This document shows positions 27,863-30,861 of a stretch of DNA of 64,000 nucleotides, in pieces. The DNA is from Betaproteobacteria bacterium. GTDB lineage: Bacteria > Pseudomonadota > Gammaproteobacteria > Burkholderiales > SG8-41. The notes beneath the pieces are model-generated. The model saw nothing but the letters and a program-made list of their open reading frames with translations. It was not told the DNA's origin and made no database searches. The stretch lies in NCBI GenBank assembly GCA_025363435.1, contig JANYDY010000016.1, forward strand, positions 17,318-81,317, given 5' to 3'. Both the position numbers and the translations under genes were made by a program. Within the stretch, counting starts at the first letter, position 1; every line of letters starts with the position of its first letter.

Positions 27863-30355
27863 ATGACTCGCAGAATCTTCGTCACCACCGCCCTGCCCTA
27901 CGCCAACGGCTCGTTCCACATCGGCCACATCATGGAGTACATCCAGGCCGATATCTGGGTGCGTTTCCAGCGCATGCAAGGGCATGAAGTCCATTTTGTC
28001 TGCGCCGACGACGCCCACGGCGCGCCCATCATGCTCAAAGCCGAATCCGAGGGCATTACACCTGAACAACTGGTCGGCCGCATCGCCGCCGAGCGCCCGA
28101 AATACCTCGAGGGCTTCCACATTGCCTTCGATAACTGGCATTCGACCCACTCGCCGGAGAACACCGAACTCTCGCAGGATATCTACCGCAAGCTGAAGGC
28201 GGCAGGGCTGATTTACACCAAGTCGATCGAGCAGTTCTACGACCCGGTCAAACAGATGTTCCTCGCCGACCGCTACATCAAGGGCGAATGCCCGAAATGC
28301 TCTGCCCGCGACCAGTACGGCGACGCCTGCGAAGTCTGCGGCGCCGTCTACGCGCCGACCGATCTGAAGAACCCGTACTCGACCCTGTCGGGCGCCAAAC
28401 CGGTAATGAAATCGTCGGAGCATTACTTCTTCAAGCTCTCCGACCCGAAGTGCAAGGAATTCCTGCAGAACTGGCTCGACCAGAGCGGCCATCTGCAGCC
28501 GCAAGTCGCCAACAAGGCGCGCGAATGGCTGACCGGCGACGGCGACAAAGCGCTCGGCGACTGGGACATTTCGCGCGACGCGCCCTACTTCGGCATCCCG
28601 ATTCCCGACGCGCAGGGCAAGTATTTCTACGTCTGGCTCGACGCACCGGTTGGTTACCTGGCGAGCTTCAAGAACTACTGCGCGAAGAAGGGTATCGACT
28701 TCGACAAATTTCTCGCCGACCCGGCGACCGAGCAGATCCACTTCATCGGCAAGGACATCATTTACTTCCACACGCTGTTCTGGCCGGCCATGCTGCACTT
28801 TGCGCAGAAGAAAACGCCAAACCAGATCAACGTGCACGGTTTCATCACCGTCTCCGGCGAGAAAATGTCGAAGTCGCGCGGCACCGGCATCAGCCCGCTG
28901 CGCTACCTCGACGTCGGCATGAATCCGGAATGGCTGCGCTATTACATCGCCGCGAAGTTGAATGCGAGCGTTGAAGACATTGACTTCAATCCGGATGACT
29001 TCATGGCGCGGGTGAATAGCGATTTGATTGGGAAGTACGTGAATATTGCAAGCCGCTGCGCGGGCTTTATCAATAAGCGATTTAATGGCCAACTCGTAGC
29101 AGTTGAACCAACCAACGAGCTCATTCAACAGATTCAAGCATCCGCTAAAAAAATCAGTGATTATTTTGATAATCGAGAATATGGGAGAGCAATTCGCGAA
29201 ATTATGTTCGATATTGATAACGCGAATGCATTTGTAGATCAGGTAAAACCCTGGGAACTCGCAAAACAAGCAGGTGCCGAAACGCAACTCCAGCAAGCGT
29301 GTTCTGATGCCCTAAATATGTTTCGCCTATTCACCATTTATTTGAAACCTATATTGCCAAGATTGGCTCATCAGGTCGAAGAATTCTTTGGTATCGATTC
29401 ACTAACTTGGTCTGATGCTAAAACCCTTCTACCTGCTAGACACCGAATCAATAATTACAGTCATCTCATGTCCCGCGTCGAAGAAAAACAACTCGACGCC
29501 CTGCTCGAACTCGACGCGCCGCCCCCCTCTCCCTCCGGGAGAGGGGCTGGGGGTGAGGGAAAAAAGCACAAACGTCCACTCCCGGAAAATCTCCTCGGCT
29601 TCGCCAGAAAACTCCGCAGCGAGCAAACCGATGCTGAGCAACTCATCTGGGGCCTGCTGCGCGATCGCCGACTCGCCAACGCCAAATTCCGTCGCCAGCA
29701 CCCGATCGAAGCCAGCGGAAAAAACTACGTCCTCGATTTCTACTGCGACGAGCTGAAACTCGCCATCGAACTCGACGGCGGCCAACATCAAACTGCGGCG
29801 ACGGTCGATGCCGCGCGCACGGCTGCGCTGAAAAAGGCCGGAATTACCGTCGTTCGCTATTGGAACAACGACGTTCTGCAGCAAACCGAAGTCGTCCTCG
29901 AGTCAATCTGGAATGCGATCATGGAAAAGTCTCCGCAAGATAAAAATCTTCCCTCACCCCCCGCCCCTCTCCCGGCGGGAGAGGGGGGCAAACCCGACGC
30001 CAGAGCAACTGCGGCGGCAGCAAGCAATACCATCTCGATCGACGATTTTTCGAAAATCGATCTGCGCATTGCCAAGATCGTCAATGCAGAAACGGTGGAA
30101 GGCGCCGACAAGCTCTTGAAGCTCACGCTCGACGTCGGCGCGCTCGGCACCAAGCAGGTTTTCGCCGGCATCAAATCCGCCTACGATCCGGCGACGCTGG
30201 TCGGCAGGCATACAGTGATGGTGGCCAACCTGGCGCCGCGCAAGATGAAGTTCGGCATGTCCGAAGGCATGGTGCTCGCCGCTTCCGGCGACACACCCGG
30301 ACTTTTCATACTCTCGCCGGACAGCGGTGCGCAGCCCGGAATGAAAGTGAAATAG
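27863..30355 (+). CDS. metG: Methionyl-tRNA synthetase with an in-frame DUF559 endonuclease insertion (830 aa)
   Basis: ALPYANG.HIGH, CPKC/CEVC knuckle, WDISRD, KMSKS, C-terminal tRNA-binding OB domain ([12 protein letters not shown]...SEGMVLAA); about 155 extra aa in the linker. Confidence 0.97.
29521..29561 (+). repeat. Left palindromic arm of the cassette
   Basis: 10-bp hairpin cccctctccc-tcc-gggagagggg followed by ctgggggtgaggg; reads [13 protein letters not shown] in the metG frame. Confidence 0.9.
29949..29989 (-). repeat. Right palindromic arm of the cassette
   Basis: ccctcaccccccg then hairpin cccctctccc-ggc-gggagagggg; reads [13 protein letters not shown]. Confidence 0.9.
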
Positions 30356-30429
30356 CCGGCGTCTTCTTCTGCAGCAGCAGTACGCGAGCGGAAATTATCG
30401 CCGCGAAATAATCGCGGCACTAAGCGAAG

Positions 30430-30861
30430 TTACGGACGGATGTAAGCCCAGCCTTCGCTCTGCCGCAGCATCAGGGCGGTGACGCCGGCTTTGACGAAAC
30501 CGATATTCGGCAACAGATCGGCCTTGGTCGTCTTGGTGTTTCTCATGGTGTTTTCGCAGGCGAACACGCCGGCGCCGGCGCTCAGCGTCTCGGCGATGCG
30601 CGCGGCCACCACCGAATCGACCTTCAGCATATTGAGCCCGGGGCCGTAGGTGATGAGTTCGATGTCGACATTCTCGCGGCCGAGGTCCTGCTGAACGTTA
30701 CGAATGTTGTTGAGCGCGAGGTTCCACTTGGCCGGATCGTTGTCGCTGACCTGGAACACCACTTTGTGGCGCGCGGCGGCCGTTTCCGCCGCCTGCACGG
30801 CCGGCGCAACTGCAGTCGCAAACGCAGCCAATACGGTAAGAATTTGCAGCAGCTTTTTCAT
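30430..30861 (-). CDS. Periplasmic DsrE-family protein
   Basis: Signal peptide; KVVFQVS, ALNNIRN, YGPGL, ACENT, GWAYIRP. Confidence 0.88.
   Translation of the reverse strand: MKKLLQILTVLAAFATAVAPAVQAAETAAARHKVVFQVSDNDPAKWNLALNNIRNVQQDLGRENVDIELITYGPGLNMLKVDSVVAARIAETLSAGAGVFACENTMRNTKTTKADLLPNIGFVKAGVTALMLRQSEGWAYIRP

Follow-up and report, generated by a model that had tools for sequence, protein, structure and literature searches.

The 64,000-nucleotide (nt) stretch of DNA analyzed here (hereafter, the window; contig JANYDY010000016.1 of GenBank assembly GCA_025363435.1, positions 17,318 to 81,317 of the forward strand) comes from the 2.97 Mb genome of a Betaproteobacteria bacterium of the Burkholderiales lineage SG8-41 (genome G000). 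Its metG gene encodes a methionyl-tRNA synthetase (MetRS; P0001) in which a nuclease domain of the DUF559 family, enclosed by the two arms of an inverted repeat, lies in frame in the flexible linker that joins the anticodon-binding domain to the C-terminal tRNA-binding domain (Table 1). The Pfam domains follow each other in the order tRNA-synt_1g (amino acids (aa) 5-399), Anticodon_3 (aa 417-544), DUF559 (aa 579-686) and tRNA_bind (aa 734-827). The first 555 residues are 74-79% identical to the MetRS of congeners. An earlier note, made from the same DNA, had pointed to the unusual length of the metG product and to its extra block in the linker, and both observations hold: the protein consists of 830 aa, compared with 690-730 aa in nine congeners without the insert.

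The cassette in metG

The two 41-nt arms are 95% complementary, with two mismatches, and each forms a perfect hairpin, with the mismatches located outside the stems (one in the loop and one in the spacer past the hairpin). Both arms are translated without stop codons, so that the insert is flanked by Pro/Gly-rich linker peptides, 13 aa being read from each arm, in agreement with the earlier note. The anatomy of the arms is that of the intrastrand triplex motif (TM), in which a pyrimidine stem and a purine stem are separated by a loop and followed, past a short spacer, by a G/T 'third strand'. In both arms, the stems are perfect over 10 bp, the loop and the spacer each consist of 3 nt, the rule for triplex pairing (antiparallel G.G, A.A or T.A) is satisfied over 10 positions, and the third strand points toward the reading frame. 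The consensus of the cassette arms, CCCTCTCCC-loop-GGGAGAGGG-spacer-GGGGTGAGGG, with third strands of the form GGG(G)TGAGGG, is identical to that of the TM published for Escherichia coli; going by this identity, the arms are copies of the published motif.

The triplex rule can be gleaned from a larger set of arms as well. Among 141 arms located beside DUF559 genes, 91 contain at least 8 consecutive allowed triplets; exchanging the third strands between arms that differ in their stems reduces this number to a mean of 30 and a maximum of 43. Stems and third strands co-vary, for example, with GGGAGAGGG accompanied by GGGTGAGGG, GGGGGAGGG by GGGTGGGGG and AGGGGAAGG by GGATGGGGA. The folding energy of the metG arms is unremarkable (-11.8 to -13.7 kcal/mol, z of -1 to -2), so that their significance stems from the comparison with other sequences rather than from thermodynamics. 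The hairpin pattern CCCTCTCCC-N1-7-GGGAGAGGG occurs twice in the window and is absent from 100 shuffled versions, and the best match to the left arm in the entire genome is the right arm (score of 35, compared with 33 and 29 for the next matches).

Across G000, the hairpin-only pattern has 24 sites and the canonical TM pattern (hairpin plus third strand) has 24 matches, 12 per strand, with no occurrence of the reversed control pattern in either case; a looser pattern of the hairpin with the third strand yields 29 TM sites. In a profile search of the genome, the only match to PF04480, the DUF559 profile, is the one in metG. The earlier note had taken the palindromic ends to be the nuclease's own, which has to be abandoned because the arms belong to a published, genome-wide repeat, with 29 copies and a single DUF559 domain in G000.

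Holder et al. 2015 (PMC4666352, where the earlier work of Hoyne et al. 2000 is cited) counted 23 TM copies in E. coli K-12 and reported the motif from more than 260 genomes. According to the accessible part of that paper, the E. coli TM forms a triplex in vitro, is tied to genomic instability and rearrangement hotspots, is frequently arranged as inverted pairs and, in E. coli, is always intergenic, with no association with mobile elements and no functional correlation with the neighboring genes; that part of the text contains neither the word 'endonuclease' nor 'DUF'. PMC5100583 describes this repeat as a hairpin-G-quadruplex switch and does not mention a nuclease either.

In contrast to the 'always intergenic' report for E. 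coli, G000 has translated TMs in three further essential genes, all in frame and without a nuclease and in hosts confirmed by Pfam: an inward-facing pair in leucyl-tRNA synthetase (LeuRS; L003, C5:863-954), a solo TM in PurH (L158, C91:27931-27951) and a degenerate one in Mfd (L159, C10:55078-55100). At most of the intergenic TM sites of G000 (contigs C19, C36, C48, C54, C57, C65, C66, C76, C109 and C116), the TM belongs to a longer, composite repeat, which includes a second hairpin located some 10 nt upstream; the core of this hairpin, ..TTCGCATCAGCGAA.., is conserved and its outer stem co-varies. The metG arms lack this second hairpin. Other REP-like palindromes (GGCGGATAAGCG...) are found elsewhere in G000, for example in C50.

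The domain between the arms belongs to DUF559, as proposed in the earlier note: the insert scores 114.2 bits against PF04480 (cut-off 20.6) over positions 5-108 of the 109 in the profile. Its structural relatives are PDB 3HRL (E 5e-38) and, more distantly, PDB 3R3P, that is, I-Bth0305I (E 2.8e-4), the activity of which is described in PMC3239194. The residues that are invariant in the family (T, E, W, FRRQ, D, E-x-D-G, H, D, R and R-x-W) are all intact in the metG domain and in 18 of the 18 verified in-frame copies, and do not vary across 35 aligned MetRS fusions. DUF559 is a large family, with 42,444 clusters (50% identity) in a profile search at E<=0.001 and 21,740 at E<=1e-10.

Both the start and the stop codon of the DUF559 gene are missing in metG, so that the nuclease can be produced only as an internal, unspliced domain of MetRS. 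The Pfam scan of P0001 (E up to 0.01) detects neither an intein/Hint splicing domain nor, within the cassette, a transposase, and the Rfam scan of positions 28800-30500 (E up to 1) detects no intron or other RNA family, the sole match being a chance hit to a snoRNA (E 0.31); the cassette thus lacks transposase, intein and intron machinery, in agreement with the earlier note. All the sequence evidence indicates that the insert is retained in the protein rather than spliced out.

An insert bounded by repeats could arise during assembly, through a chimera at the repeat that fused a free-standing DUF559 locus with metG. The left arm is indeed a high-copy repeat, with a summed depth of about 290 compared with 13-19 beside it, and the contigs from public runs break inside it, with an overlap of 29 nt. 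Nevertheless, this explanation is almost certainly wrong. A 717-nt contig that connects the left arm to the C-terminal domain contains DUF559 and the right arm and has no mismatch, and a 556-nt contig leads from the anticodon-binding domain into the left arm, again without a mismatch. These contigs come from one study, perhaps from the window's own samples, and none spans the whole stretch; among them, breaks occur only inside the left arm, and there are no strand-changing joints at the arms. Furthermore, the metG frame is open throughout, and the same in-frame architecture is found in G022, G024, L076, L077, L088 and 85 other MetRS among the best 120 large DUF559 proteins, from several sources; this recurrence across many independent genomes is the stronger argument. 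A misassembly at the repeats, which the earlier note had considered, is at odds with both the independent contigs and these fusions, at least 85 in number, that have the same arrangement.

Table 1. Coordinates of metG, the cassette and the adjacent features in the window.
Feature	Position	Strand	Details and basis
metG (methionyl-tRNA synthetase), host of the cassette	27863..30355	+	Stop-free open reading frame, 830 aa plus stop; Pfam domains
Low-GC patch encoding the anticodon-binding domain	29000..29480	+	GC ~41% compared with 55-65% around; composition profile
Left arm (TM)	29521..29561	+	Pyrimidine stem 29524-29533, loop 29534-36, purine stem 29537-29546
Left arm, remaining parts	spacer 29547-49, third strand 29550-29559	+	Fits the published TM consensus
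DUF559 nuclease domain (Vsr/EDxHD-like PD-(D/E)XK), aa 579-686	29597..29920	+	Pfam E 3.3e-33
Right arm (TM)	29949..29989	-	Third-strand complement 29951-29960, spacer 29961-63
Right arm, stems	29964-29973 and 29977-29986	-	Perfect 10-bp hairpin
C-terminal tRNA-binding (OB) domain, downstream of the cassette	30062..30343	+	Pfam tRNA_bind, aa 734-827

TM-flanked DUF559 at other loci and in other proteins

In the genus to which the window belongs, DUF559 is present in 19 of the 29 genomes. The 23 full-length loci are flanked by an inverted repeat with a score of at least 17 in 16 cases and of at least 12 in 20, and all these repeats are of the hairpin-plus-G-box type, with the G-box toward the open reading frame (ORF). 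A wider scan, with one genome per species, yields 589 relatives, of which the best 80 were examined; 77 of these have full flanks, and 146 windows shifted by 900 nt at the same loci serve as the control. An inverted repeat with a score of at least 17 flanks 49 of the 77 loci compared with 1 of the 146 shifted windows, and the hairpin motif is present on both sides in 47 of the 77 and, again, in 1 of the 146. The association of the repeat with DUF559 elsewhere had been named as a check in the earlier note itself, and these counts bear it out. A perfect hairpin of at least 7 bp is found in 157 of the 204 DUF559 flanks, with the purine half and the G-box facing the ORF.

The best 80 of the 589 loci come from Beta-, Gamma-, Alpha-, Zeta- and 'Delta'-proteobacteria, Chloroflexota, Nitrospirota, Melainabacteria and Tectimicrobiota. 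On a DUF559 tree with 101 rows, the arm subtypes are clustered, with 36 changes compared with 48.2 in shuffled assignments, and none of the 200 shuffles gives a number as low. One DUF559 clade with arms of the form CC(C/T)TCCCCT-TCA-AGGGGA(G/A)GG includes genomes of Burkholderiales as well as Xanthomonadales-type and Geobacter-type genomes. Only 2 of the 23 cassette loci of relatives, both with a free-standing cassette, can be mapped onto G000 by both flanks; G000 lacks both the arms and the ORF at these two sites, so that arms and ORF were gained or lost together there, and the intergenic DNA at the two sites cannot be aligned with that of the relatives base by base.

TM-like remnants are found beside two further DUF559 genes, in arrangements that depart from this architecture: that of E. 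coli ycjD (L156), which has a degenerate hairpin directly past the stop codon, a canonical TM about 200 nt further and none upstream, and that of the Neisseria gonorrhoeae homologue of PDB 3HRL (L157), where a variant motif (CCTCTCTCCC-TGT-GGGAGAGAG..AGAGAGAGGG) is present on both sides in direct rather than inverted orientation. In the accessible part of PMC9881135, 'DUF559 domain-containing protein' is 14-fold enriched among predicted targets of programmed inversion, which fits the widespread inverted repeats that flank DUF559 genes. For the metG cassette, programmed inversion is rejected: an inverted cassette would bring a stop codon into metG.

Residence within a protein is not confined to metG. 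Many of the closest relatives of the metG domain sit within long open frames, and a mid-protein DUF559 is confirmed by Pfam in MetRS of three further taxa (Variovorax among them), valyl-tRNA synthetase (ValRS), LeuRS, HrpA, PriA, the radical-SAM protein YgiQ, HsdM, HsdR, four MmeI/Eco57I-type enzymes, a Type ISP enzyme, a DUF1156 methylase and aconitase. The proposal of the earlier note that DUF559 persists as a tolerated domain in housekeeping proteins fits its presence in MetRS, LeuRS, ValRS, PriA, HrpA and aconitase. Altogether, the cassette, free-standing or in frame, spans several phyla and at least 13 host protein families, and in every host read at the sequence level, DUF559 is flanked by TM-derived peptides, such as PSPPxPLPxGEG, in various frames.

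The in-frame copies are concentrated on the tree. All 18 verified copies fall into one 36-row part of the 101-row tree and none is among the other 65 rows, in a sample that was ranked by likeness to the metG copy, so that the in-frame clade is over-sampled; the in-frame state requires 8 changes compared with 16.8 in shuffled trees, with none of the 500 shuffles as low. A word-indexed search of 5.8 billion proteins gives 340 proteins of 456-1453 aa that contain DUF559 at E<=1e-10. Among the best 120 of these, 86 are MetRS (P0001 included), annotated simply as methionine--tRNA ligase. These 86 include the MetRS of the cultured bacteria Ferriphaselus sp. R-1 and Methyloversatilis. A 4-aa insertion is common to the MetRS copies of DUF559, including that of Variovorax, which points to a single MetRS-resident lineage.

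Several of these large proteins contain additional elements. The MetRS fusions P0105 and P0078 have extra solo TM peptides in a loop of the catalytic domain where P0088 has a 4-aa stretch, which is consistent with the insertion of TMs as discrete units of about 36-40 nt. A DNA methylase of 1445 aa (P0055) includes two DUF559 domains, the first of which adjoins a weak intein-splicing match (E 8.7e-5, below the cut-off) with intein-like end motifs; an intein-borne DUF559 and a TM-type DUF559 may reside in this protein side by side. At five loci (L103, L147, L138, L151 and L144), the DUF559 frame continues without a stop into the downstream gene, which encodes an EpmA-like class II synthetase paralogue in two cases and an agmatine deiminase-type PAD_porph, a TadA-type deaminase and a protein without assignment in one case each; these are either N-terminal fusions or read-through frames.

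The TM and DUF559 also tend to occur in the same genomes. In an even sample of the class, comprising 300 scored genomes (265 genera, completeness of at least 90%), with strong DUF559 matches defined as those with E up to 1e-19, the canonical TM is present in 74 genomes, DUF559 in 71 and both in 44. DUF559 is therefore found in 44 of the 74 TM-positive genomes compared with 27 of the 226 TM-negative ones (odds ratio of 10.8), and in 31 of the 40 genomes with at least 5 TMs. Without three genomes flagged as unpublished, the co-occurrence table reads 43/29/26/199, with an odds ratio of 11.3.

Filled and empty metG alleles within the genus

The metG insert is present in 5 of the 29 genomes of the genus, namely, as a whole in G000, G022 and G024, at a contig end in G003 and in G021, an assembly with numerous frame errors. 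Full-length empty alleles, the existence of which in relatives the earlier note had made a point to check, are found in 9 genomes, compared with the 3 filled and 2 partial ones. In the empty alleles, the common linker reads IEKEPAKVT..TPHPATPAKSGVT, and a solo TM comes next, at the position of the right arm. This TM differs in subtype from one species to another, and the changes in the two stem halves and in the third strand compensate each other. The filled alleles lack a 24-aa piece of the linker and have a common '(L/I)DAP' junction, which is indicative of replacement rather than clean insertion. Thus, of the in-frame insertion claimed in the earlier note, the frame is upheld, and the insertion is not a clean one, given that about 24 aa of the ancestral linker were replaced.

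The filled alleles are not mutual nearest relatives in their flanks. The metG of G000 is closest to the empty allele of G014 (93% identity in aa 1-390 and 98% in aa 715-830), and the flanks of the G024 gene are closest to the empty G016. Among 62 MetRS fusions, the pairwise distances of DUF559 correlate with those of the adjacent C-terminal domain at r = 0.48 and with those of the catalytic domain at r = 0.11 (Spearman), which, like the empty alleles, differs from the strictly vertical carriage with congruent trees that the earlier note had considered; the two host domains themselves, catalytic and C-terminal, correlate at only 0.33. By these comparisons, the metG gene is a mosaic.

The left side of the metG linker in G024 (L024) consists of a tandem array of three to four TM-derived units, GEG(Q/K)NKA(L/P)VPPL(S/P)P, and the G022 gene has two left and two right arms; the arms in these two genes multiply locally, with the frame kept open. 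The anticodon-binding domain beside the cassette (aa 400-545) is only 40-53% identical to that of every congener, compared with 84-93% for aa 1-390, and is closer (57%) to that of a genome from another family. Unrelated versions of this domain, with varying GC content, are found in other congeners too, which looks like repeated replacement of the metG segment that adjoins the TM-bearing linker.

Within metG, DUF559 evolves as a constrained sequence. When the metG copies of the genus, L076 and L077 are compared with one another, the ratio of nonsynonymous to synonymous substitution rates (dN/dS) in the DUF559 core is 0.10-0.18, and the same range applies to their pairs with L088, except for the pair L076-L088, for which it is 0.40. 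Judging from these ratios, the domain is under purifying selection and has been for as long as the host domains diverged.

A proposed homing-like cassette and the alternatives

Taken together, the observations support a discrete, horizontally moving cassette composed of a TM, DUF559 and an inverted TM. The preferred explanation, for which a probability of roughly 60% appears appropriate, is that this is a selfish, TM-flanked nuclease cassette that spreads in a homing-like manner and is tolerated as a protein domain; the homing-like mechanism, which is inferred, would be the most economical one. A nuclease activity conferred on MetRS, the other possibility raised in the earlier note, is likewise putative. 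In such a mechanism, the DUF559 nuclease would nick or cut TM-bearing or cassette-free sites, and recombinational repair from a filled copy would duplicate the cassette, with the TMs and the conserved metG flanks providing the homology. TM pairs without an ORF would represent empty or non-autonomous forms. The cassette can be located between genes or, in the case of a sub-lineage that lacks start and stop codons, in permissive loops of large proteins, where the TM arms act as flexible linkers and the host protein includes the nuclease. In essential genes, only in-frame, stop-free insertions into permissive loops would survive, which would be why the cassette is seen there as a 'domain'.

Several findings weigh against this explanation. 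The arms of about 40 nt provide short homology for RecA-type repair. The difference between the filled and empty metG alleles is one of replacement, with no target-site duplication seen. The synonymous distances (dS) among the metG copies are at least 1.2, that is, saturated, and as deep as those of the host C-terminal domain, so that long co-residence or domestication fits as well. With 29 TMs in the genome and a nuclease that would be made constitutively in MetRS, an enzyme that makes double-strand cuts in the TM should be toxic; hence TM cleavage, if real, would have to be nicking, structure-dependent or otherwise restrained. Relatives are rare on plasmids (43 of 72,556 records, with several of these 'plasmid' matches being chromosome-size records) and phages (2 of 50,697), so that there is no evident vehicle for transfer between cells. 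In the class sample, DUF559 is missing in 9 of the 40 TM-rich genomes and the canonical TM is missing in 27 of the 71 DUF559 genomes, and Fisher tests overstate the significance of the co-occurrence because kin are not independent. Within the genus, the number of hairpin repeats does not depend on DUF559 (median of 22 in the 19 genomes with it and 15.5 in the 10 without, p 0.63), and G002, which is 99% complete, has 46 repeats and no DUF559.

One alternative is exaptation: DUF559 might have been captured once by an ancestral metG and kept for a benefit to the host, such as RNA or tRNA cleavage or binding, or DNA repair near transcribed genes, and might since have been inherited with metG and shuffled by homologous recombination, with the TM arms left as scars of the capture or as linkers. 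A dN/dS of about 0.1, the dS that matches that of the host domain, the 4-aa insertion common to the MetRS copies, which fits one origin, the predominance of MetRS (86 of the best 120 large DUF559 proteins, including those of the cultured Ferriphaselus and Methyloversatilis), and the distances that follow the adjacent C-terminal domain (r 0.48) are all in line with such a history, and an RNA-acting Vsr-like domain, that of FASTKD4, is on record in the accessible part of PMC11879112. A single capture is hard to reconcile, however, with the insert being present in only 5 of the 29 genomes of the genus, with an empty allele as the closest one by flanks, with DUF559 distances that scarcely follow the catalytic domain (r 0.11), with nearest relatives of the MetRS copies in unrelated hosts (LeuRS, YgiQ, MmeI) from other taxa, and with the free-standing, intergenic occurrence of the same cassette elsewhere, all of which makes exaptation unlikely. 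Alternatively, the TMs could be mobile by way of host functions, with DUF559 being a Vsr-like housekeeping repair nuclease that is trapped between TMs or regulated by them and does not drive their movement. TMs outnumber DUF559 29 to 1 in G000, are abundant in genomes without DUF559, enter LeuRS, PurH and Mfd of G000 in frame, solo or paired, without a nuclease, and are reported as rearrangement hotspots in the available text of PMC4666352. Chance trapping, though, is unable to explain the constant architecture across phyla, in which the third strands face the ORF and the arms abut its ends; nor is it readily compatible with arm subtypes that follow the DUF559 clades, with the odds ratio of 10.8 or with a sub-lineage that lost its start and stop codons and hops among host proteins, so that a mere passenger role for DUF559 appears quite improbable.

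A more far-reaching version of the cassette hypothesis is put forward tentatively, with the odds somewhat against it. Under this version, DUF559 would be the enzyme partner of the TM repeats, a small, structure- or sequence-specific PD-(D/E)XK nuclease that would recognize the folded TM, move TMs and copy itself between TM pairs, in a triplex-based analogue of REPIN/RAYT, with a sub-lineage that resides, unspliced, inside essential proteins. RAYT genes are themselves flanked by REPs. The REPIN-RAYT system (PMC3337134, as far as its accessible text goes) likewise ties a low-copy enzyme gene to a genome-wide hairpin repeat that also forms spaced inverted pairs. The differences are that RAYT belongs to the HUH tyrosine transposases and that REPs lie outside genes, whereas the cassette encodes a PD-(D/E)XK nuclease and its repeat is of the triplex type. 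The sole Y1 transposase of G000 (IS200/RAYT-type, PF01797, C79:5147-5473) has no TM in its flanks.

The TM repeats covered by the accessible part of PMC4666352 have the same consensus, the same three-part logic, many copies per genome and frequent inverted pairs, but the E. coli TMs are intergenic, whereas those described here are translated in essential genes and bracket a nuclease gene. The EDxHD/Vsr-like homing endonucleases, as far as the accessible parts of the two sources extend (I-Bth0305I; Dassa 2009, PMC2677866; Taylor 2011, PMC3239194), have a related fold, as seen in the 3R3P match, and likewise reside inside host genes for DNA and RNA enzymes; they differ in being housed in group I introns, inteins or 'fractured' split-intein genes and in having a large DNA-binding N-terminal part, whereas the metG cassette lacks an intron, an intein and an extra DNA-binding domain, and is retained in the protein. 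Inteins with homing endonucleases are similar in their conserved nucleic-acid enzyme hosts, patchy spread and intact nuclease, but P0001 has no Hint/splicing domain and the insert is not removed. Homing endonuclease genes in general are matched in the same-site presence/absence polymorphism (5 of the 29 genus genomes filled) and not in their intron, intein or intergenic housing, given that the cassette lies inside a coding frame. As regards transposons, insertion sequences and miniature inverted-repeat transposable elements, the cassette has inverted ends and no transposase, no target-site duplication is seen in metG, and the two mapped intergenic sites do not align base by base. The Rickettsia palindromic elements and other intragenic miniature elements (PMC10969869) are short palindromes that lie in frame in unrelated housekeeping genes and are tolerated as a peptide. 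In the accessible text of that source, the Rickettsia elements are about 150 bp long, occur in Rickettsia and encode only a conserved peptide, with no enzyme mentioned; the TM repeat is about 35-40 nt long, spans several phyla and, as a pair, is able to carry a nuclease.

Each of the components is known: the DUF559 family, Vsr-like homing nucleases, TM repeats and palindromic elements that lie in frame. The combination of the TM with DUF559 was not found in a literature search that covered few subscription journals.

DUF559 is a large family with a solved structure (3HRL) and no known role, and the TM repeats, which are conserved in E. coli and hundreds of other bacteria and associated with genome instability, have no known partner protein. 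Because the two are linked both physically and genomically, each can be put to a direct test in E. coli K-12, a strain that has TMs as well as a DUF559 gene (ycjD). If DUF559 is the enzyme partner of the TM, this would provide a function for more than 20,000 protein clusters and for a repeat that has been unexplained since 2000. For genome annotation, there is a warning in that 'long' synthetases are mosaics. In-frame residence without splicing, as in MetRS, LeuRS, ValRS, PriA, Mfd-type and restriction-modification proteins, would be a way for selfish DNA to equip essential enzymes with additional domains and linkers, with neither inteins nor introns involved.

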